DNA of 64,000 nt from a bacterium (GTDB taxonomy: Bacteria > Patescibacteriota > Patescibacteriia > SG8-24), in assembly GCA_021824285.1 (NCBI GenBank), contig JAKAKZ010000002.1:1303-65302 (forward strand). The letters run 5' to 3'. The notes below the pieces were generated by a model. It ran no database searches, was not told where the DNA came from, and saw nothing but the letters and a program-made list of their open reading frames with translations. Shown piece after piece: positions 4,211-33,445 of this stretch (the stretch's first letter is position 1; each line of letters begins with the position of its first letter). The position numbers and the translations under genes are program-made.

Positions 4211-7200
4211 CTAGGAGCAGCCGCTCGTCGACCCGCAATTTAGGCACTTGTAGCAGGCGCCATTCCGGACCATCATCGCGCCGCAGGTGTCGCACACCGG
4301 CGCGTCGGCCTGGTTGTCGAAGCTCATGGTCAGGGCGTTCGAGGTCCGACCGCGGTCCTTCTGGGCGTCAATCGTCAGCTGGGCGGCCGCGGCGGCGGAT
4401 ATGGCCGTTTTCGGCTCGTCCGGCAGGGGCGTGCAGGATGGCGTGCAGGATTCCGCAGTCGGCGGTTCCGGCGCTGCCATTGCAACCGGCGTCGGCGGCT
4501 CGAACGAGGCCTGACCAGCGTCGCCGATCGTCTGCACTTCGGTATTCACGCCCACGGCCTTCGCCTCTTCCGGCGACAGGAACTTCAGCGCCAGCCAGCG
4601 GAAGATGTAGTCCACGATGGACTTGGCGATGCGGATATTCGGGTTGTTGGTGAAGCCCGACGGCTCGAAGCGCACGTGCGCGAACTTGTTCACGAGCACC
4701 TTTAGCGGCACGCCGTACTGGAGCGCGATGGATGTCGAGGTGGCGAAGGCGTCGATGAGGCCGGCGATGACCGAACCGCCCTTGGCCATGCGGATGAAGA
4801 ACTCGCCCGGCGTGCCGTCGTCATACAGGCCGACGGTGATGTAGCCCTCATGTCCCGCCACCGAGAACTTGTGAGTGAGCGACTTGCGCTCGTCCGGCAG
4901 GCGGCGGCGAAGCGGGCGGTACTCGATCTTGACCTGCGGGGATTGGGTATTGGTGGCTGGTGGCCGGTGGCCGGTGGCTGGTGCTGTGGCTTCTGTAGAT
5001 TTGGTGGAAGCGGCTGGAGCAGGCTTCTTGTCCTTTTCCACGGAAGTCGTCAGCACCTGCTGCCCCTTGGAGCCGTCGCGGTAGATGGCCACGGCCTTGA
5101 GGCCCAGCTTCCAGGATTCGATGTAGGCGTCTTCCACGTCCTTGGGCGTGGCCTCGGCCGGCATGTTCACGGTCTTGGAAATGGCGCCGGAGAGGAACGG
5201 CTGGACCGCGCCCATCATGCGGATGTGGCCCATGTACGGGATGGAACGCACGCCCTTGGCCGGCTTGAAGGCGCAGTCGAAGACCGGCAGATGCTCCTTC
5301 CGGAGATGCGGCGCGCCCTCGATGGTGCCCTCGCGGTCGAGGTAAGCGAGAATGGCCTGTTTCTCCGCCTCGGGATAGCCGAGCGCGTCGAGCGCCAGCG
5401 GCACGGTCTGATTGACGATCTTCATGAGCCCACCGCCCACGAGCCACTTGAACTTCACGAGCGCGATGTCCGGCTCAATGCCGGTCGTGTCGCAGTCCAT
5501 GAGAAAGCCGATGGTGCCGGTCGGGGCCAGTACGGAAATCTGGGCGTTGCGGAAACCGCTTGCCATGCCGCGCTCGAGCGCCTGGTCCCAGGATTCGCGC
5601 GCCATGTCCTGCAGATCCTGCGGCACGCCAAGCGGCGGGATGGCATAAGCCTTGTCGCGGTGCATGCCGATGACCTTGAGGAACGGCCGCTCGTTAAGCC
5701 GATAGAAGCGGAACGGTTCGAGCGCCTCGGCGACGGCGGCGGACTGGGCGTAGGCCCGGCCGGACATGAGCGCCGTGATGGCCGCAGCGAAATTGCGCCC
5801 CTCCTCGGAGTCGTAGGCCAAACCGCGCGCCATGAGCAGGGCACCGAGATTGGCGTAGCCCAAGCCGAGCGGCCGGAAATCCTCGCTGTTCTGTTCGATG
5901 GCCGGTGTCGGATAGCTGGAGTTGGAGACCAGGATCTCCATGGCCGTGATGATCACGTCCACGGCATGGACGAAGGACTCCACGTCGAACCCGCCGTCCG
6001 GCAGGCGGAACTTCATCAGGTTAAGCGAGGCCAGGTTGCAGGCCGTGTCGTCCAGGAACATGTACTCCGAGCACGGATTCGAGGCGTTGATGCGGCCGGA
6101 GTTCGGCGAGGTGTGCCAGCGGTTGACGGTCGTATCGTACTGCAGTCCCGGATCGCCGCATTCCCAGGCGGCTTCGGAGATCTTACGCATCAGGTCGCGG
6201 GCGCGCAGGGTCTCGACCGTCTCGCCGGTCGTCACGGCGCGAGTACGCCATTCGCGGTCTTCGAGCACTGCCCGCATGAAGTCGTCGGTCACGCGCACGC
6301 TATTGTTGGCGTTCTGGAAGAAGACCGAGCCGTAGGCCTCGCCGTCAATGGAGCCATCGTAGCCCAGACCGACCAGCGCTTTGGCCTTCCGCTCCTCTTT
6401 CACCTTGCACATGATGTATTCCTCGATGTCCGGGTGGTCGGCGTTCAGGATCACCATCTTGGCCGCACGGCGCGTCTTGCCGCCGGACTTGATGATGCCG
6501 GCGAAGGCGTCGAAACCCTTCATGAAGGACACCGGCCCGGAGGACTTGCCGCTCGAATTGCCCAAATGCTCCTTGGACGAGCGCAGGGTGGAAAGATTGG
6601 AACCGGTGCCGGAACCGTACTTGAAGAGCATGCCCTCCGTCACCGTCAAGTTCAGGATGGAGCGCATGTCGTCGCGCACGGAATTGATGAAGCAGGCGGA
6701 GCACTGCGGCCGCGCGCTGACGCCCACGTTGAACCAGACCGGGCTATTGAAGGCCGCGTGCTGGTTGACGAGCAGGTGCGTCAGTTCGGTCTCAAAGGTA
6801 TCGGCGTCGCCCGGCGTCGCGAAATAGCCGTCATGGCGGCCCCAATCGGAGACGGTCTTGGCCACGCGGTCCACCATCTGGCGCACGGAAGTCTCCCGCT
6901 CCGGCTTGCCGATCTGGCCGCGGAAATACTTGGAGACGCAGATGTTGGTCGCCTGCTGGCTCCAGGATTCCGGCACCTCCACGCCGCGCTGTTCGAAGAC
7001 GTTCTTGCCCTTCTCGTTGGTGATGATGGCATCGCGCACCTCCCAGGTCATCTCGTCGTAAGGATGCACGCCATCGCGGGTGAACCAGCGATGGAAGCGG
7101 ATGCCGCGGGTGTGGCGCGGCGGGGCCGTCGGCACGTCAGCCGCCGTCAGCGTCGCGAAGTACCGTTTGACGGCGTAGGGCAGGTTATTGTCGATCAGGA

Positions 7201-7516
7201 CGCCGGCAATCGTCCGGGCGACATCGTCCGTGGTCGGTACGGCATGCCCGTCGAAATCGCGCTCCAGCCGCATCAGGGCCTGATGCGTGCAGCGCGCCAA
7301 GAGCTGGCTGTCGGAGAGCCCCACGTCCTTGAACGCCTGCGCAAAAGAAATCGCGACCTGGGCGGCGTCAAAGGGCGCCACGCTGCCGTCGCGATGCTTG
7401 ATGGTCGTGACTTTGGTCAATTCCGGGATCTGGTCCAAGATCGCCGCCACGACCTCCTTGGTGTCCTCGTGGCGTGCGCCGAAAGACGCGCGGGTTTTGG
7501 TTTCGGAATGCGGCAT
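4211..7516 (-). CDS. nrdJ: class II (adenosylcobalamin-dependent) ribonucleotide reductase with N-terminal ATP-cone
   Basis: GAGGAGG SD then ATG (MPHSETK). ATP-cone (VTTIKHRDGSVAPFDAAQVAISF). RNR catalytic core. C-terminal zinc ribbon CDTCGAMMVRNGACYKCLNCGS typical of NrdJ. Low-complexity linkers, no intein hallmarks. Confidence 0.9.
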   Translation of the reverse strand: MPHSETKTRASFGARHEDTKEVVAAILDQIPELTKVTTIKHRDGSVAPFDAAQVAISFAQAFKDVGLSDSQLLARCTHQALMRLERDFDGHAVPTTDDVARTIAGVLIDNNLPYAVKRYFATLTAADVPTAPPRHTRGIRFHRWFTRDGVHPYDEMTWEVRDAIITNEKGKNVFEQRGVEVPESWSQQATNICVSKYFRGQIGKPERETSVRQMVDRVAKTVSDWGRHDGYFATPGDADTFETELTHLLVNQHAAFNSPVWFNVGVSARPQCSACFINSVRDDMRSILNLTVTEGMLFKYGSGTGSNLSTLRSSKEHLGNSSGKSSGPVSFMKGFDAFAGIIKSGGKTRRAAKMVILNADHPDIEEYIMCKVKEERKAKALVGLGYDGSIDGEAYGSVFFQNANNSVRVTDDFMRAVLEDREWRTRAVTTGETVETLRARDLMRKISEAAWECGDPGLQYDTTVNRWHTSPNSGRINASNPCSEYMFLDDTACNLASLNLMKFRLPDGGFDVESFVHAVDVIITAMEILVSNSSYPTPAIEQNSEDFRPLGLGYANLGALLMARGLAYDSEEGRNFAAAITALMSGRAYAQSAAVAEALEPFRFYRLNERPFLKVIGMHRDKAYAIPPLGVPQDLQDMARESWDQALERGMASGFRNAQISVLAPTGTIGFLMDCDTTGIEPDIALVKFKWLVGGGLMKIVNQTVPLALDALGYPEAEKQAILAYLDREGTIEGAPHLRKEHLPVFDCAFKPAKGVRSIPYMGHIRMMGAVQPFLSGAISKTVNMPAEATPKDVEDAYIESWKLGLKAVAIYRDGSKGQQVLTTSVEKDKKPAPAASTKSTEATAPATGHRPPATNTQSPQVKIEYRPLRRRLPDERKSLTHKFSVAGHEGYITVGLYDDGTPGEFFIRMAKGGSVIAGLIDAFATSTSIALQYGVPLKVLVNKFAHVRFEPSGFTNNPNIRIAKSIVDYIFRWLALKFLSPEEAKAVGVNTEVQTIGDAGQASFEPPTPVAMAAPEPPTAESCTPSCTPLPDEPKTAISAAAAAQLTIDAQKDRGRTSNALTMSFDNQADAPVCDTCGAMMVRNGACYKCLNCGSTSGCS

Positions 7517-7537
7517 AGGGTCCTCCTCAGGAGTTAT

Positions 7538-7586
7538 GCACAATAGGTTGTATATTACGTTACCATCTTACCACTATAGGTTGTGG
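7538..7586 (-). promoter_or_regulatory. two NrdR-box-like palindromes (gcacaataggttgtat and ccactataggttgtgg, 33 bp apart) in the nrdJ leader
   Basis: Both resemble the NrdR box consensus acaCwAtATaTwGtgt and share ATAGGTTGT. They lie 22-70 nt upstream of the nrdJ ATG. Confidence 0.45.
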
Positions 7587-8456: not shown

Positions 8457-8470
8457 GACAGATCGCTACC

Positions 8471-8618
8471 CTAGGCAGCCGCATTTGCAGTCCCGACCGT
8501 CGTGCGACGCATGGCCGCAATCCGGACAGAACTGTTCGACCTGCTGTTCCGCCTCACAGCCGCACGAGCAGCTGCCGTCATCAAGATGGTCGTGTTCGCA
8601 AACGTTGCAGAGTGACAT
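8471..8618 (-). CDS. small Cys/His-rich protein, 49 aa (putative metal-binding; not in supplied ORF track)
   Basis: Translation MSLCNVCEHDHLDDGSCSCGCEAEQQVEQFCPDCGHASHDGRDCKCGCL*. 10 Cys and 4 His. High GC3 codon usage. No SD. Confidence 0.3.
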
Positions 8619-9528: not shown

Positions 9529-9556
9529 CCCGATGCCCTCTTGGGCATCTTTTTTT
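9529..9556. terminator. bidirectional rho-independent terminator (gatgccctcttgggcatc + T-run)
   Basis: Hairpin flanked by T-run on plus and A-run upstream. Sits between the convergent genes 9145..9519 and 9632..9889. Confidence 0.6.
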
Positions 9557-9631
9557 ATTTATGCCCGCGTCGCGGGAAATGAAAAACGGCCGCGCAAGAT
9601 GCGCGGCCGCGAAGTCCTTGATGCCCGGCGC

Positions 9632-9889
9632 TTACGAGCCCCGGGGGCGCTCGGCGACCTCCACCTTGGCCTGCCGCGCGCGGGCGTCCACCTGGTCGCC
9701 CTGCTCGACGCAGACGTCGAGCGAGGCCGGCTGGCCGTTCAGCAGGATGTCCTTGTTCTCCGCCGAGATGCCGGCGGCCTTGAGGACCTCCCCGAGCTTG
9801 GCGCCCGTCTTCTTGACCTCGACCGTCTTGGTCGTGGTCCGGCCCTGGGTGGGCACCACCGTGATCGAGACCTTCAGAGTACCTGCCAT
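9632..9889 (-). CDS. beta-grasp ubiquitin-like (ThiS/MoaD-like) small protein, noncanonical C-terminus
   Basis: AAGGAGA SD 6 nt upstream of ATG. 85 aa. KVSITVVP...ILLNGQPAS...VEQGDQV pattern as in ThiS/MoaD-like Ubls. Ends ...VAERPRGS, not GG. 27 nt downstream of the E1 gene. Confidence 0.5.
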   Translation of the reverse strand: MAGTLKVSITVVPTQGRTTTKTVEVKKTGAKLGEVLKAAGISAENKDILLNGQPASLDVCVEQGDQVDARARQAKVEVAERPRGS

Positions 9890-9916: not shown

Positions 9917-10567
9917 TCAGTCGGCGAGGAGCTTCATCTCCCCGGCCAACCACTTCAGGTGCCGCCTGGTCTTACCATAAGTCCAGACGTTGGTCAACGA
10001 CATGACCGCCAGGGCCGTCGCCATCTTGGCCACCGGATCGAGCCCGTGCTCGCCGCACATCGGCCGCAACGCGGCCTCATCCGGGTAGAGGAAGTGCTCG
10101 TAGTAGGCGATGTCGTCCTGGTCGGACGGATTCACCGCGAACACCGAGACCAGCTCGATGGCCACGCGGGTATCCACGAGGATGCCCACGTTCGGGTTCT
10201 GGCGCACGGCCTCCCAGATGAGGCGCCGGGCGGCCATCGAATCCACGCAGGCGACGACCGCGTCGCGGAGCGGTTCGCCTGCGTAACGGCGCTCCTCCGC
10301 GACGATGTCCAGACCGCTCTGCTCGCGGACGATCTCCGCGAGCGCCCGGACCTTGTAGACGCCGAGATCAGCCGGCCGGTAGGCCGACATGCAGATGTTG
10401 TGCGACTCCACGCAGTCGTGGTCGAACACGCGGAGCCGCTCCACTCCGATCTTGGCGAGTGAACAGACGACCTGGCTGCCGACCGAACCGGCGCCGATGA
10501 CGGTCACCGGGCGGGCCGCGGCCGGATCGAAGATGTTGTCCTGCTGCGAGCGGTTGAGCGCGGTCAT
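9917..10567 (-). CDS. E1-like ubiquitin-activating enzyme (ThiF/MoeB family)
   Basis: Rossmann VTVIGAGSVGSQV. ThiF motif DHDCVESHN. VVACVDSMAARR. Candidate catalytic Cys in LRPMCGEHG. Start ATG overlaps upstream stop (ATGA). Confidence 0.8.
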   Translation of the reverse strand: MTALNRSQQDNIFDPAAARPVTVIGAGSVGSQVVCSLAKIGVERLRVFDHDCVESHNICMSAYRPADLGVYKVRALAEIVREQSGLDIVAEERRYAGEPLRDAVVACVDSMAARRLIWEAVRQNPNVGILVDTRVAIELVSVFAVNPSDQDDIAYYEHFLYPDEAALRPMCGEHGLDPVAKMATALAVMSLTNVWTYGKTRRHLKWLAGEMKLLAD

Positions 10568-11982
10568 GACGCCACCTCCGAAGTCAGCTGTGTTGCCGGC
10601 GGTGCCGCTTCGGCCGACTGCGCCTCCACCGGCCATTCCTCGATCTTTACCTCGGCCGACTCGGGCGAGTAGCCGTCGCGCAGCCAGCGCACCATCAGGC
10701 GGAACAGGTCCGCGATGCGCAGTTCGCCGGCCGCTTTCGCGATGACATCCGACGCGTTGCCGTAGCACGGCACGCCGTCCTTGGCGATGTGCGGGTGCGG
10801 CACGCCCTTCGGGTGCCGCGGCGCCTCGCTCCAGACCGCAACCGCGCCGTATTTGCCCAACCGGACCGTGAAACTGCCCAGCTGGTAGCGGCGGCCATCG
10901 TGCGCGATGACGATCGGCTTGGTCACGAGATGCAGGCCGTCGTCCAGGAAACGCATGTCAGCCAGATCCTGGTCGGCCAGCAAGGCCGCGAAATCCTCCC
11001 GTGGCCGGAACTTCAGCGCCGTGGTGAACGCCGGCGAAGTGAACTGCGCCAGCATCGCCTCGTAGATGCGCTTCTGGCGGTACGCCTCGGCCTGCCGTTT
11101 CTGCAGTTCTGCGAGGGTCTCCTCGATCTTCGCCAGCTCGTCGCGGAAGTTCTTCTCCACATAACCGCTCCAGCCGGCGACCGTCGCGGCGAAGTCACGG
11201 CGCGTCGGCCGACGGTGCCCGTCATTCATGACGAGCGCCGCCTGCCGCGCCTCCCAAGACTTGGCCAGGAGCTTGGCAAAAATGAGGTCGCTCACGTGCT
11301 GGTAATAGTGGCTGACCACCGGCACGAGCAGGTAGAAGTTCAGGCCCAGGGCCTGCACCACCGGCTTGCCGGCCTCGTCTTTCACCACCAGGCCGCGGCC
11401 ATGCGTCGGTCCGTTGCAGACCACGGCGTGACCGTCCTTATGCGGACACAAGCCGAACAGCAGCGCTTCATAGCGGCTGTTGGCGTCGCCGGGCGGCGTC
11501 GCGTTGGCGAAGAAGTGCGCGGTCGTGCCGTCGTCGGGGAACGGCGCGCGGACCGATCCGCCGCCGAGATGCACCGCTGCCTTCAGTCCGGTCAGCCGGC
11601 TGAACAGCTCAAGCGCCGGTTGGTAATAGCGCATGATGCGGCGGCGCTTTTCCAGCTCCGCCGGGTCGAGCTTATCGCCGTAATTGACCGTGGCCTTCTG
11701 GGGCGGCGGCAGGACAAGCGTCACGAGCCGGTCGCGGATCGTGCCCTTGAAAAGGCTTTTCCGCTCGACCGGGATCTTCAGGACCGAAGCCGCCCTGACG
11801 GCATCTAACGCCCCGAAAGGCGTGGCGTTGCCGAAGAGCAGGACATCGATGAAATAATCCTGTATCGCCAGGCGCGCTTTCCGGCCCTTGAGTCCGTGCG
11901 CGGCCAGCTCCGCTACCTTGCCAGCGGCCGCGTAAGCCGGGAAGGCCAGCGGACCGCGGTACTGCTCGGAACTTTTTTTCAT
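10564..11982 (-). CDS. 472-aa protein with C-terminal UBC-like E2 domain fused to an unknown ~380-aa N-terminal domain
   Basis: AAGGAGAGA SD then ATG at 11982 (MKKSSEQ). C-terminus ...AVAVWSEAPRHPKGVPHPHIAKDGVPCYGNASD has the same HPx-I-x3-G-x2-C spacing as the eukaryotic E2 HPN-loop and catalytic Cys (UbcH5 HPNINSNGSIC). N-terminal region has no recognisable motifs. Confidence 0.6.
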   Translation of the reverse strand: MKKSSEQYRGPLAFPAYAAAGKVAELAAHGLKGRKARLAIQDYFIDVLLFGNATPFGALDAVRAASVLKIPVERKSLFKGTIRDRLVTLVLPPPQKATVNYGDKLDPAELEKRRRIMRYYQPALELFSRLTGLKAAVHLGGGSVRAPFPDDGTTAHFFANATPPGDANSRYEALLFGLCPHKDGHAVVCNGPTHGRGLVVKDEAGKPVVQALGLNFYLLVPVVSHYYQHVSDLIFAKLLAKSWEARQAALVMNDGHRRPTRRDFAATVAGWSGYVEKNFRDELAKIEETLAELQKRQAEAYRQKRIYEAMLAQFTSPAFTTALKFRPREDFAALLADQDLADMRFLDDGLHLVTKPIVIAHDGRRYQLGSFTVRLGKYGAVAVWSEAPRHPKGVPHPHIAKDGVPCYGNASDVIAKAAGELRIADLFRLMVRWLRDGYSPESAEVKIEEWPVEAQSAEAAPPATQLTSEVAS

Positions 11983-12119: not shown

Positions 12120-12617
12120 TCAACGAAGTTCGAACCGTCCTTCCGTGAGCCGAATCGCCTTCCGACGGGCCAGACGACGACAGACATCCCATGCCTGCGC
12201 CGTCGGCATCTGAAGCAACGAGGCGGCCTCCGGAACAGTGAGCGAGGAAGCCAGCCGCAGGCCAAGATACTGGCCGTTCCGGAAACGCTTGGCCAGGTCG
12301 AGCATGGCGTCGTCCGGTCCCAGGGCCAGCCAATCGCGGCAGCAGTCCCGCGCCAGCCTCAGCCGGGTGTCCGCCATGACCGACTCCTTGGCCGCGCACG
12401 GCACGCCGGGGCTGACCTTCCGCCAGGCGAGCCGCGCGGACCGCCCGGTCCAGACAGTCTCGAAATCGCACTCGCAGAGCAGGTGGAAATCGGCGATGCC
12501 CGCCTGCTGGTTCTCCAGGCGTACGTGAAACACGGCGTGGCCGCGACGGGTCCAGCGGCACAGAACGCGGACGCGGCAGTTGCCGATGGCAACGCCGTCC
12601 TTCAGGTTGAGGGGCAT
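12120..12617 (-). CDS. hypothetical protein with C-terminal winged-helix/HTH-like region
   Basis: AGGAG SD 6 nt upstream of ATG (MPLNLKDG). C-terminal LTVPEAASLLQMPTAQAWDVCRRLARRKAIR resembles HTH recognition helix region. Own terminator. Directly upstream of the E2/E1/Ubl operon. Confidence 0.45.
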   Translation of the reverse strand: MPLNLKDGVAIGNCRVRVLCRWTRRGHAVFHVRLENQQAGIADFHLLCECDFETVWTGRSARLAWRKVSPGVPCAAKESVMADTRLRLARDCCRDWLALGPDDAMLDLAKRFRNGQYLGLRLASSLTVPEAASLLQMPTAQAWDVCRRLARRKAIRLTEGRFELR

Positions 12618-12744
12618 CACGGCTCCTGCGGTAAAAGGGCTGACGCCAATATAGCCGACGGTCGGCTGCGGTCAAGCGGCGGCCTCGACCGGCAGCGCCG
12701 TTCCATGTTAAACTTTCTTCAAGAATCAACCTAATCATAATCAT

Positions 12745-32071: not shown

Positions 32072-33445
32072 TCACGGAAACAGTGCCTCCGTCAGCTTGG
32101 CGTGCATGTCGCGGCCAGGAACGAAAGCCAGCTCCGCGGCCGCCGTACGGCTCATGCGGATACGTATCGACCGCACGATACCCTTGCCGCTGCCGTCCAC
32201 ATAGGCCCGTACCGGGCGTTTGACCGGATCAAGCGATTCGATCAGCAGTTCCGCTCCGAAGGGAAGATGCGCTGATTTCCAGCCGGTGGGTTCGGCCACA
32301 TTCGAACCGACGACCAGGAAAGCCCGCGCGTCCGCCGGCAGCGGAGTCGCGCCCATGGCCTTGGCATAGGCCGTGGAACCTACCGCCGTGGACGCGAGCG
32401 CGCCATCGGCGACCAGCCGACCGATACGGACTTCGCCGTCCACGGTCATGCGCAGCCAAGCCGCCTGGCCGCCGGCCCGCTCGACCCAAGCGTCGTTGAT
32501 GGCGTAGTGCTGCGTGATCCGGCCGGACATGTCTTCGGTCTCCACGTACAGCAGCGGCATCAGCTGGACGTCCAGTTCGCGTGCCAGCGCGGACGGGCCG
32601 GAAAGCGCGCCGGGGTCGTTCAGCAGATGGCCGCGGTGGCCCACATTCAGGCCGATGAACGGCAGACGCAGCTTCCAGTGCTGGCGCACGGCGCGGATCA
32701 TCGTGCCGTCGCCGCCGGCCACCAGAACGCAGTTGGCCGCCTCCGGACCGACCGATGCGAACCCGCCGGCCAGCCGGCGGGCCTCCGGATTGAGTTCGTC
32801 GAAGACCGCAAGCGGCCGCGGCTCGGAAAGCGAGAACGGTTTCGGCCGGACCGGGGCCGCCGCGTGATACAGGCCATGGCGGTCGACATAGGAAGCCACC
32901 TCGGGCGTCAGCAGCTCATCGTATCGCGTGCCGCGGAAAATCCGTTCCCGCACTTCGCCGCTGGCGCCGCTCTGTCGTGTGGGTACGAAAAGATGCCGCG
33001 GCGGTAGATCGGCCTCCTCGAGGCCGTAGCCGTCGCGCTGGATGACCGCGAAGTTCAGCTTGCCCCAGAGTTCGCGACCGCCTTCCCAGGAGCCGTGGAC
33101 GAACGACCGTCCCGCACCGCCGCCGCGCAGCATGTCCGTACCGACCGCGTGCCAAACCTCCCCTTCCTGACCGTAACGTTCCTCCAGGATGTGAGTCCGC
33201 GTGAAACGCGCGTGCTCCAGATCGGAATAGTCGACTCGCACCCCGGGCAGACCGCGAAAAGCCAGATCCGCCATCACCGCGCGGTGCAGCGGATCGATGA
33301 GCCCAGGCACCGGGCGGTCCGGCCGCGGTCCGCCCGGCACCACGATGATCTCGTCGAACAGGCGCAACAAAGCCTCCACGGCGGCGCGATGGTGCCGTCC
33401 CGGAGGGTTGAACGTGCCGCTGAAGATGGCCAGTCGCTTGGACAT
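32072..33445 (-). CDS. bifunctional NadD-like nicotinate-nucleotide adenylyltransferase / NAD kinase fusion
   Basis: N-terminal GTFNPPGRHH (GxFxPxHxxH). C-terminal GGDGTMIRAV and DGALASTAVGSTAYAKAMGATP NAD-kinase motifs. Confidence 0.7.
   Translation of the reverse strand: MSKRLAIFSGTFNPPGRHHRAAVEALLRLFDEIIVVPGGPRPDRPVPGLIDPLHRAVMADLAFRGLPGVRVDYSDLEHARFTRTHILEERYGQEGEVWHAVGTDMLRGGGAGRSFVHGSWEGGRELWGKLNFAVIQRDGYGLEEADLPPRHLFVPTRQSGASGEVRERIFRGTRYDELLTPEVASYVDRHGLYHAAAPVRPKPFSLSEPRPLAVFDELNPEARRLAGGFASVGPEAANCVLVAGGDGTMIRAVRQHWKLRLPFIGLNVGHRGHLLNDPGALSGPSALARELDVQLMPLLYVETEDMSGRITQHYAINDAWVERAGGQAAWLRMTVDGEVRIGRLVADGALASTAVGSTAYAKAMGATPLPADARAFLVVGSNVAEPTGWKSAHLPFGAELLIESLDPVKRPVRAYVDGSGKGIVRSIRIRMSRTAAAELAFVPGRDMHAKLTEALFP

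Follow-up and report, generated by a model that had tools for sequence, protein, structure and literature searches.

A conserved Gly-Ser end in ubiquitin-like proteins encoded with a ThiF-type E1 and an E2-like protein, mainly in candidate-phyla-radiation bacteria

How could a ubiquitin-like protein be put to use that ends in Gly-Ser instead of Gly-Gly? The question is raised by a short open reading frame in a 64,000-nucleotide stretch of patescibacterial DNA (the window), for which a preliminary description had proposed a beta-grasp ubiquitin-like protein (Ubl) without a terminal Gly-Gly. The fold and the ending ERPRGS were both borne out here (family profile, AF2 and Foldseek), but the reading of the tail that came with them was not. 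The same description had missed the two upstream genes, one for an E1 of ThiF type and one for an E2-like protein, which form the real functional context of the Ubl (Table 1).

Table 1. Positions of the features discussed, in coordinates of the window
Feature	Position	Strand	Remarks
Ubl open reading frame, 85 aa, ends ERPRGS	9632..9889	(-)	ubiquitin-like beta-grasp protein
Variable insertion DARARQAKV, residues ~68-76	9662..9688	(-)	past the GDQV turn, ahead of the conserved C-terminal segment
C-terminal motif E80-R-P-R-G84-S85 (codons)	9635..9652	(-)	family-wide conservation
Intrinsic terminator	9586..9610	(-)	11-bp stem with 9 GC pairs, then T-run; 22 nt past the Ubl stop
ThiF-type E1 adenylation enzyme, 216 aa	9917..10567	(-)	single adenylation domain; Pfam ThiF
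472-aa protein	10564..11982	(-)	N-terminal domain of unknown fold, long coiled coil, C-terminal E2-like domain
E2/UBC-like domain, residues ~338-455	10618..10971	(-)	HPH-x7-C motif
HPHIAKDGVPC motif, residues 396-406	10765..10797	(-)	candidate catalytic Cys406
HExxH open reading frame, 124 aa	9145..9519		convergent

The Ubl open reading frame is a real gene, with a GGAG Shine-Dalgarno sequence 6 nt upstream of its ATG, and its product is predicted to fold as a ubiquitin-like beta-grasp protein. Searched as a single sequence, it gives weak matches to SAMP2 (PF21965, 24.8 bits, below the cutoff of 27), Ub-Mut7C (21.3 bits, below the cutoff of 23) and ThiS; the NCBIfam models score far under their cutoffs, and none of the curated Ubl-family models is reached above threshold in this search. 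A profile of 72 family sequences, however, detects the solved SAMP2 structure 5lda_B with E=5e-7. The AF2 model shows a beta-beta-alpha-beta-beta order (pLDDT 73), the beta-grasp pattern whose absence from a structure prediction had been named as a refutation, and its top matches in a Foldseek search of the PDB are Caldiarchaeum ubiquitin, SUMO, TtuB and SAMP1 (best E 3e-4, probability 1.00).

Measured against SAMP2, the C-terminal part of this copy is long, with 18 residues after GDQV vs 9 in SAMP2, and with a distance of 33 residues between the NG turn and the C-terminus, where the family mode is 24 and equals the SAMP2 distance. This excess had been taken for about 20 additional C-terminal residues; it turns out to be a nine-residue internal insertion that precedes the conserved V-x-V-x-E-R-P-x-G-S end. 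The insertion site is a gap in most family members (MAFFT alignments), the insertion ranges in length between 0 and about 25 residues among family members, and the AF2 confidence is lowest here (pLDDT <50, residues 74-78), within a low-confidence tail formed by residues 72-85. In short members the pattern GD-x-V-x-V-x-E-R-P-x-G-S comprises GD and 11 further residues, as in SAMP2 GDFVEVIPVVSGG, and the alignment of the Ubl profile to SAMP2 is contiguous until two residues short of the SAMP2 end. The GS end of the short members is thus in register with the Gly-Gly of SAMP2, and not one residue past it.

An alignment of homologues had been suggested as a way to reveal a conserved Gly followed by a variable tail, and it reveals the reverse: the last six residues, E-[R/K]-x-x-G-S, are the best-conserved part of the Ubl family in at least 113 clusters. 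Of 113 curated family tails, 108 finish with Ser, 3 with Gly and 2 with Ala, so homologues ending at a conserved Gly-Gly are not what the family consists of; Gly occupies the second-last position in 106 (94%), Arg or Lys position -5 in 107 and Glu position -6 in 107. Short profile matches end in GS in 100 of 114 cases, and the C-terminal motif is invariant in the 4 closest homologues and present in the Ubls of the distinct loci. A single GG member (L012, with an E1 that is 50% identical) is nested in the clade and ends RPQGG at the same position. Homologues of 30% to 86% identity end alike, which rules out that this copy is a GG protein altered by a frameshift or an extension. By these alignments the Gly-Ser ending is no defect of this copy but the conserved mark of a family that had not been described before and is mostly found in candidate-phyla-radiation (CPR) bacteria. 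The residues seen at the very end of the family (Ser, Gly and Ala) are the three smallest residues only.

On the minus strand the E2-like gene is followed by the E1 gene, the Ubl gene and a strong terminator. These three genes form a translationally coupled operon with the Ubl gene last; the start of the E1 gene overlaps the stop of the 472-aa gene (ATGA), and a gap of 27 nt, with a Shine-Dalgarno sequence, separates the E1 and Ubl genes. The three genes are colinear in all related loci whose length permits a judgement, about 45 in number, which come from metagenome contigs and from metagenome-assembled genomes (MAGs) of CPR bacteria. Of these loci, 12 were obtained by looking up the proteins, in metagenome contigs and one MAG, and by a genome-bin scan, and 35 further metagenome loci are colinear wherever the contig extends; the E1 gene is directly upstream of the Ubl gene in all loci where the contig allows. 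Clustering of the neighbours in the 21 triad loci with long flanks yields neither a fourth conserved gene nor a peptidase, and no conserved rhodanese, cysteine desulfurase, ThiG, MoaE or TtuA-type partner. A DUF5752-like 104-aa open reading frame and a 166-aa one upstream are ruled out as partners, as both are confined to contigs of this organism. The hosts are mainly CPR bacteria, with a few bins carrying other taxonomic labels; the distribution is sporadic, and the genomic neighbours are housekeeping genes. The base composition around the operon gives no signal of recent transfer, and an Rfam scan of the window returned no RNA families.

The E1, for which the gene call in this organism's own contig (L004) is 216 aa long, matches Pfam ThiF with 1.7e-14 and 54 bits (cutoff 28.1). 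Its best solved relatives are UBA5 and Cap2, with the similarity to UBA5 limited to the nucleotide-binding half (residues 16-94). The E1-E2 models of PADLOC match it as well (best 6.6e-13), with their E1 part only, over residues 71-190 of a 283-aa open reading frame (about 4-123 in the 216-aa numbering). Over 12 loci GxGxxG, DxD, K72, C107-V-D109, R114, D132-T-R134 and C171-G-x-H-G are invariant, and the Gly-rich loop, the Mg-binding Asp and the Arg/Lys phosphate ligands are all present. Cys171 in C-G-x-H-G, invariant in 12/12 loci and near-universal in the wider set, is a candidate catalytic residue; it lies ~62 residues past the Mg-binding Asp, like the crossover-loop Cys of ThiF and UBA5.

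The 472-aa protein has no match among Pfam, NCBIfam, PADLOC and PHROG models. Its homologues occur only beside this E1 and Ubl, and a further profile search added one homologue only. The motif HPH[IVLM]-x6-C is found in all complete distinct homologues (the one in L038 is truncated by the contig end), and its His-to-Cys spacing is the same as in HPNINSNGSIC. The tentative assignment of the C-terminal domain as E2-like comes from this motif, from a hhalign comparison with 5 eukaryotic E2s that places HPH..C on HPN..C (probability 65.5%, E 5.8e-5), and from a Foldseek search of the PDB in which E2s (UbcH7, UBE2L6) make up 7/11 of the top matches, at non-significant E values of 0.075-0.4 and with a low-confidence model. 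In this AF2 model (pLDDT 57) the predicted beta-meander, loop and two helices of the C-terminal domain fit the E2 fold; HMM searches gave no match of the protein to any E2 of Pfam or the PDB. Its N-terminal ~330 aa have no sequence match in Pfam or the PDB, and a BFVD fold search with them, for which the AF2 model is poor, was uninformative. Not one Cys, His or Ser in this part is invariant, so nothing obvious marks it as a peptidase.

The open reading frame under study very probably encodes the Ubl of an E1/E2-type cassette. The explanation I favour, at a probability of roughly one half, is a minimal E1-E2-Ubl conjugation system in which the C-terminal Ser of the Ubl is retained without processing and activated. 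The E1, which is probably homodimeric as are ThiF, MoeB and UBA5, would bind the conserved tail V-x-V-x-E-R-P-x-G-S and directly adenylate the carboxylate of the terminal Ser, which takes the position of the last Gly in SAMP2, ThiS and ubiquitin. The Ubl may then pass via the crossover-loop Cys171, would be handed as a thioester to the E2-like domain, at Cys406 of its HPH-x7-C active site, and would finally be joined to a target amine. The target would be chosen by the N-terminal domain and the coiled coil of the 472-aa protein, which could thus combine E2 and E3; a processing protease would not be needed, and the neighbouring HExxH gene would be unrelated. Noncanonical chemistry, with an activated residue other than Gly, is now the favoured reading. 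In its favour are the GS end in the register of the SAMP2 Gly-Gly, the nested GG member L012 that ends at the same position, the RGG or SGG ends of JAB-less phage triads with the same gene order, the restriction of the last residue to the three smallest, and the linkage of the triad without a fourth gene or peptidase. A precedent for a non-Gly activated terminus exists in the CD-NTases ending in Ala that are conjugated by Cap2 (PMC10097602). However, in E. coli CBASS a change of the terminal Gly to Ser abolished thioester formation by Cap2 and conjugation (PMC10097602), which counts against direct activation of Ser.

The main rival, which I hold to be possible but rather unlikely, is that the terminal Ser is a one-residue cap, removed by an unlinked peptidase, upon which the exposed Gly84 would be activated canonically and enter the same relay from E1 to E2. 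The E1s characterised so far all activate a terminal Gly, or Ala in CBASS. Human Ufm1, the substrate of the best solved E1 relative UBA5, is made as a G-SC precursor, and further analogues of a cap are known from Atg8 (G|R) and from JAB-processed bacterial Ubls. The 94% conservation of the second-last Gly is also what would be expected if Gly were the mature end, and thus speaks against Ser activation. Yet five Ubl clusters have Ser, Asn or Asp at the second-last position and still keep the terminal Ser, and Gly as the activated residue is hard to reconcile with these. The cap would moreover be Ser in 96% and never longer than one residue, while removable caps normally vary. This is apparent even in distantly related four-gene modules, in which a JAB gene is added between the E2 and E1 genes, the Ubl gene comes first and the Ubls end VRGS, VSGS, VKGA, VAGA or VKGE. 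These modules point both ways: their Ubls look one-residue capped, which argues against Ser activation, and their presumed caps are S, A or E. Their tails extend one residue beyond the SAMP2 register, whereas the Gly-Ser end of the triad family does not. In small CPR genomes, finally, a cap peptidase would have to be encoded away from the triad, as none is linked to it in the 21 loci with long flanks.

Improbable, in my estimation, is the alternative that the Ubl serves as a sulfur carrier, adenylated and thiocarboxylated like ThiS, MoaD and TtuB for cofactor or tRNA thiolation, or is a mere binding partner, and that the 472-aa protein is non-conjugating. Such a role would agree with the small beta-grasp proteins of the SAMP2, ThiS and TtuB type being the closest sequence families of the Ubl, with the minimal single-domain E1 of ThiF/MoeB type, and with the housekeeping genes around the triad. 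It is at odds with the lack of conserved sulfur-transfer partners near the triad, and with the invariant partner that is found instead, which carries HPH-x7-C aligned to the E2 active site. The sporadic spread of the triad does not track a cofactor pathway either. Known sulfur carriers all end in Gly-Gly and differ in this from the Gly-Ser found here. Iyer et al. 2006 (PMC1779556) can be compared on this point. The Ubl has no constant neighbours except the E1 and the E2-like protein, and with no conserved thiazole synthase, molybdopterin synthase or sulfurtransferase as a neighbour, membership in a ThiS/MoaD pathway is rejected.

Very improbable, and by the comparative data already largely refuted, is the proposal of the preliminary description that the convergent HExxH protein cuts off an about 20-residue tail and exposes an internal Gly before conjugation: the gene is about 110 nt from the Ubl stop, residues 72-85 of the Ubl are modelled as a low-confidence tail, and the HExxH protein faintly resembles putative metallopeptidase families (DUF6782, E 0.03; WLM, E 0.06; no significant match in family searches), but it occurs in this organism's own contigs only (L004-L006) and in 0 other triad loci, it forms a separate transcription unit with its own terminator, the strong conservation of the last six Ubl residues is the opposite of a discarded propeptide, and upstream of the insertion no Gly is conserved except in the GD turn inside the fold. 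Its co-occurrence and separate transcription rule it out as a partner of the Ubl. The absence of a JAB, which had been noted alongside this proposal, is confirmed, as no genuine gene in the window contains a JAMM motif and the matches to the pattern are shadow frames or chance.

The cassette can be set beside known systems that share parts of it. Archaeal sampylation and the TtuB-TtuC pair of Thermus resemble it in combining a small beta-grasp protein with a single-domain MoeB/ThiF-type E1, and SAMP2 in particular by profile-level homology and by an equal distance between GD turn and C-terminus; these systems end in Gly-Gly, however, and work without an E2, whereas the present Ubl ends in Gly-Ser and comes with an obligate E2-like partner, and sulfur-transfer partners are absent. 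The eukaryotic UFM1-UBA5-UFC1 pathway resembles the proposed system in its minimal single-domain E1, its one dedicated E2, and a Ubl that, as first translated, has one Gly with Ser after it. It differs in that UfSP cysteine proteases, for which no linked counterpart is found here, mature Ufm1, and in that UFC1 is without an HPN motif, in contrast to the HPH-x7-C of the E2-like domain.

Among bacterial systems, Type II CBASS (Cap2/Cap3) resembles the conjugation system proposed here in its E1 and E2 chemistry and, in some members, in a non-Gly (Ala) activated terminus, and the E1 is similar to Cap2 structures (7tsq, 7tsx). CBASS has a fused E2-E1, a cGAS-like substrate in place of a beta-grasp Ubl, the JAB Cap3 and a defence operon with an effector, and its Cap2 is intolerant of the change from Gly to Ser. 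Membership is rejected, as there is no CD-NTase and no JAB, and only the E1 half matches the PADLOC E1-E2 models; neither the E2-like protein nor the Ubl is matched by any PADLOC model. Operons of the Bil (Type I/II) and Bub (6E, Type I/II) kinds combine a beta-grasp Ubl with E1 and E2 homologues that conjugate proteins, as proposed for the triad, but both use a terminal Gly. A Bil assignment fails on the lack of a JAB/JAMM BilC in the triad or the flanks of the 21 loci and, following the definition in a bioRxiv preprint (10.1101/2024.11.21.623953), also on the E1, with its 216 aa and one adenylation domain. Bub has Ubl-E2 or E2-E1 fusions, a Cys-less E1 and a Cys-less E2 that work through oxyesters, and a DUF6527 serine protease, and is rejected here on the separate genes, an invariant Cys in the E1 as well as in the E2-like domain and the lack of a DUF6527 match. 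PRTRC is rejected too, with TIGR03736 (PRTRC_ThiF) at 46.7 bits against a cutoff of 144.75 and no PRTRC matches for the other proteins.

The bacterial ubiquitination-like pathways (CBASS Cap2, Bil and Bub) were characterised only recently, and all act on a terminal Gly, or Ala in CBASS. The triad adds a fourth, compact architecture, in which a separate minimal E1 goes with an E2-like domain that bears the classical HPx-Cys signature and is joined to a large domain of unknown kind, and a peptidase is absent. In the phylogenetic setting, mainly CPR, the literature searched had no report of such a system, and searches for it in Patescibacteria/CPR or in jumbo phages returned nothing specific. The Ubl may, tentatively, be the first natural one to be activated and conjugated via a C-terminal Ser, by a minimal E1 and a eukaryote-like (HPx-Cys) E2/E3 hybrid. 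Ultra-small bacteria with reduced genomes would then own a real protein-tagging system, and an E1 active site would have evolved to take a side chain with a beta-hydroxyl. The near-invariant Gly-Ser end hence poses a sharp, testable question on E1 specificity: should the Ser be activated directly, the accepted substrate rule for E1s widens and the conjugates gain a natural mass tag, for this copy a diagnostic GS remnant after trypsin; if Ser is a cap, an unlinked maturation protease must exist in these reduced genomes.

Relatives borne by phages, of which the literature searched has no description, are naturally suited for comparison, with GG-ended triads on the one hand and the JAB modules on the other. 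Their E1s are 26-36% identical and their E2-like proteins have the same HPH..C motif. Two of them (L083 and L090) keep the order E2, E1, Ubl without a JAB, and the Ubls of such JAB-less triads in jumbo phages end RGG or SGG. The residue after the Mg-binding Asp of the E1 (CVD-x-M) is never Asn in Ser-ended systems, whereas Asn is found at this position in UBA5 and in the E1 of the one GG-ended clade member. Covariation of this residue with the Ubl end was nevertheless rejected as a clean signal, since the GG-ended phage triads carry Ser or Thr there.

The 85-aa open reading frame codes for a ubiquitin-like beta-grasp protein (Ubl) that ends in Gly-Ser instead of Gly-Gly. The preliminary description, which had called it ThiS/MoaD-like and without Gly-Gly, was right in both respects. 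The near-threshold family scores of the single sequence (SAMP2, PF21965, 24.8 bits against a threshold of 27; Ub-Mut7C and ThiS slightly under threshold) are joined by a match of the family profile (72 members) to the SAMP2 structure 5lda_B at E=5e-7, by an AlphaFold2 model (pLDDT 73, built on the 72-member alignment) with the beta-beta-alpha-beta-beta order of a beta-grasp, and by Foldseek, whose top PDB matches are Caldiarchaeum ubiquitin, SUMO-2/3, TtuB and SAMP1.

The variable tail of about 20 residues that was proposed to follow the fold is not borne out; I find a conserved terminal motif preceded by an internal insertion. Only four close homologues exist in a collection of 5.8 billion proteins, all ending in ERP[RQ]GS, and searching 1.84 billion cluster representatives with the profile brought up 139 relatives. 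Among 113 curated tails of the family, the last position is Ser in 108, Gly in 3 and Ala in 2, and the one before it Gly in 106 (Ser 3, Ala 2, Asn 1, Asp 1), while position -5 is Arg or Lys in 107 and position -6 Glu, likewise in 107. Short members read GD-x-V-x-V-x-E-R-P-x-G-S and have as many residues past the GD turn as SAMP2 (GDFVEVIPVVSGG), and their Gly-Ser is therefore in register with its Gly-Gly. The Ubl of the window carries nine additional residues (approximately 68-76) ahead of this segment, an insertion whose length differs among family members, between 0 and about 25 residues. AlphaFold assigns the last strand to residues 66-71 and has low confidence for 72-85, whereas in the MAFFT alignment KVEVAE falls on the final strand of short members; under either assignment the extreme C-terminus is the best-conserved part of the protein and not a disposable tail. 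The observed end is real, and of more interest than one odd gene, for reasons that differ from those first put forward.

Positions of the genes, signals and related loci (window coordinates, unless preceded by the handle of a related locus, L)
Feature	Position	Strand	Remarks
E2-like protein gene, 472 aa	10564..11982	-	first in operon; family searches without match
ThiF-type E1 gene, 216 aa	9917..10567	-	second; ATG overlaps upstream stop as ATGA
Ubl gene, 85 aa	9632..9889	-	third and last, 27 nt downstream of E1 gene; GGAG Shine-Dalgarno 6 nt 5' of ATG; C-terminus ...KVEVAERPRGS
Operon terminator	9610..9586	-	11-bp GC-rich hairpin and T-run, 22 nt past Ubl stop
Region between HExxH and Ubl genes	9529-9610		two terminators
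HExxH ORF, 124 aa	9145..9519	+	convergent to Ubl operon; own terminator 9532..9549
166-aa ORF	12120-12620	-	promoter-like TTGACC-16-TATATT at 12648-12675
50-aa ORF	8466-8618	-	
B12-dependent class II ribonucleotide reductase	4211..7543		
457-aa fusion protein	32072-33445	-	
Triad with RPQGG-ending Ubl	L012:5851-8209		MAG labelled uncultured Gammaproteobacteria
JAB-less phage triads	L083:3508-6173; L090:3167-6090		E2-like 491 or 587 aa
Four-gene JAB modules	L059:1782-4615; L068:1812-4633; L072:1845-4639 (= L088 sequence); L063:421-2844; L084:2566-5582; L086:2633-5630; L089:2430-5741		

The Ubl gene closes a cassette of three genes, the triad, whose order is kept in 12/12 loci obtained from protein look-ups (metagenome contigs and one MAG) and a genome-bin scan, and in another 35 metagenome loci as far as their contigs reach. 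The genome bins carry the labels Candidatus Uhrbacteria (two), Paceibacter, Saccharibacteria and Parcubacteria, with one Baltobacteraceae bin and two labelled uncultured Gammaproteobacteria. All-against-all clustering of the neighbouring open reading frames of the 21 loci with long flanks leaves only the triad in common, the flanks being housekeeping genes that vary by lineage. A mechanical listing gives the E1 as 283 aa (9917-10768, GTG start, 205-nt overlap with the upstream gene); the shorter form starting at 10567 is backed by homologue alignment and public gene calls. Directly upstream, on the same strand, lies a 166-aa frame that has neither a family match nor a homologue in any other triad locus, and that may be co-transcribed with the triad. 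Downstream, the two intrinsic terminators stand back to back, each with its own T-run.

Catalytic-type residues are conserved in the E1, of which UBA5 and Cap2 are the closest solved relatives. Invariant are the Gly-rich loop, DxD, K72, C-V-D109, R114 and D132-T-R134, as well as Cys171 in C-G-x-H-G, which lies some 62 residues past the Mg-binding Asp, the position of the reactive crossover-loop cysteine in ThiF and UBA5. The E2-like protein consists of an N-terminal region, a long coiled coil and a conserved C-terminal domain, predicted as a beta-meander, a loop (P-H-P-H-I-A-K-D-G-V-P-C) and two helices. The motif HPH[IVLM]-x6-C occurs in all complete distinct homologues (that of locus L038 is truncated by the contig end) and has the spacing of HPNINSNGSIC in UbcH5. 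This domain is probably an E2, though short of proof: hhalign against five eukaryotic E2s aligns strands 2-4 and the HPH motif at 65.5% probability, the E2s among the Foldseek PDB matches of a low-confidence model (pLDDT 57; 7 of the 11 top matches, UbcH7 and UBE2L6) have E-values of 0.075-0.4, none significant alone, and no match came from HMM searches of Pfam and of PDB sequences. The N-terminal region is poorly modelled; its invariant residues (D106, P147, P163, G165, R196, G197, Q210) include no conserved nucleophile.

I consider it about an even chance (0.5) that the E1 activates the terminal Ser directly, since the triad has no linked peptidase, since Ser is 96% conserved and its only substitutes, Gly and Ala, make up with it the three smallest residues, since five clusters drop the second-last Gly yet keep the Ser, and since the end is in the Gly-Gly register, with GG-ended members and relatives in existence. 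Choice of the conjugation target would fall to the large N-terminal domain of the E2-like protein. It is possible, though rather unlikely, that the Ser is instead a cap which a peptidase not linked to the triad takes off: the second-last Gly is 94% conserved, the Ubls of JAB-type relatives end in G-X, known E1s all accept Gly or Ala, and Cap2 loses its activity when the Gly of the activated terminus is changed to Ser (PMC10097602). A sulfur carrier or another non-conjugating role is improbable. That the HExxH protein trims the tail, as proposed earlier, is hardly credible: its gene is not part of the system, being convergent, separately terminated, present solely in the contigs of the same organism (L004-L006) and next to no other triad. 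The reported lack of a JAB holds, as a rough search of the window for JAMM motifs turned up three matches, none genuine, of which two are in frames opposite real genes (an NAD kinase fusion and an MBOAT) and the third is within a helical 104-aa DUF5752-like protein.

In locus L012, nested within the candidate phyla radiation clade, the Ubl ends in RPQGG, uniquely in the close triad clade. Its E1 has CVDNM following the Mg-binding Asp, as in UBA5, whereas every Ser-ended system has CVD[S/T/R/G]M, and by this comparison the residue after the Asp may determine specificity; however, GG-ended phage triads carry Ser or Thr there.

These phage triads (L083 and L090, IMG/VR contigs of 140 kb and 238 kb) lack a JAB, keep the order E2-like, E1, Ubl, and have Ubls ending in RGG (...GRGG) and SGG (...ASGG). 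They represent one of two gene layouts among distant E1 homologues (26-36% identity). The other, on many phage-like contigs, has the order Ubl (73-96 aa), E2-like protein (with HPH..C and in some cases a Cys-rich tail resembling a zinc finger), JAB/MPN+ peptidase (HTH...S..D) and short E1, and its Ubls end in VRGS, VSGS, VKGA, VAGA or VKGE, one residue beyond the SAMP2 register. It looks like a distinct family, and no description of it was found in the literature searched. Several profile-search relatives of about 205-225 aa (P0035, P0044, P0067, P0070, P0071, P0075, P0092, P0130, P0138) contain three beta-grasp stretches matching the Ubl profile and end in KGN, KGNK, KGC or similar, a Gly with a variable short extension. 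Gong et al. (PMC11601603) have described triple-beta-grasp Ubls of the Bil/Bub type, to which these probably correspond. The sporadic distribution and phage-borne relatives of the triad hint at a conflict-related function; its flanks hold no defence genes.

Although the Ubl is homologous to SAMP2/ThiS-class modifiers and probably alike in working, it fails their defining Gly-Gly, and the triad, although it probably works like an E1-E2 cascade, fits no described bacterial family. It matches neither type II CBASS (fused E2-E1, CD-NTase substrate, JAB), nor Bil (JAB, large multidomain E1), nor Bub (fusions, Cys-less enzymes, DUF6527 protease), nor PRTRC, as the TIGR03736 score is far below cutoff. 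The nearest analogy is the eukaryotic UFM1-UBA5-UFC1 pathway, with its minimal E1 and Gly-Ser-containing precursor, which differs in relying on UfSP proteases and in an E2 without the HPN motif. The literature searched contained no description of the cassette or of a Ser-ended Ubl. The triad is a variant within a known type of system, and the question it poses is whether its E1 activates Ser.

Elsewhere in the 64-kb window, none of the Rfam families scored as high as its gathering cutoff, so that there is no tRNA, rRNA or riboswitch by this measure, including upstream of the ribonucleotide reductase. The 50-aa frame has no Pfam match; its very high content of Cys and His (MSLCNVCEHDHLDDGSCSCGCEAEQQVEQFCPDCGHASHDGRDCKCGCLG) suggests metal binding. 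In the 457-aa protein, NAD kinase domains (residues 232-379) follow a cytidylyltransferase-like domain (7-151), an unusual fusion.
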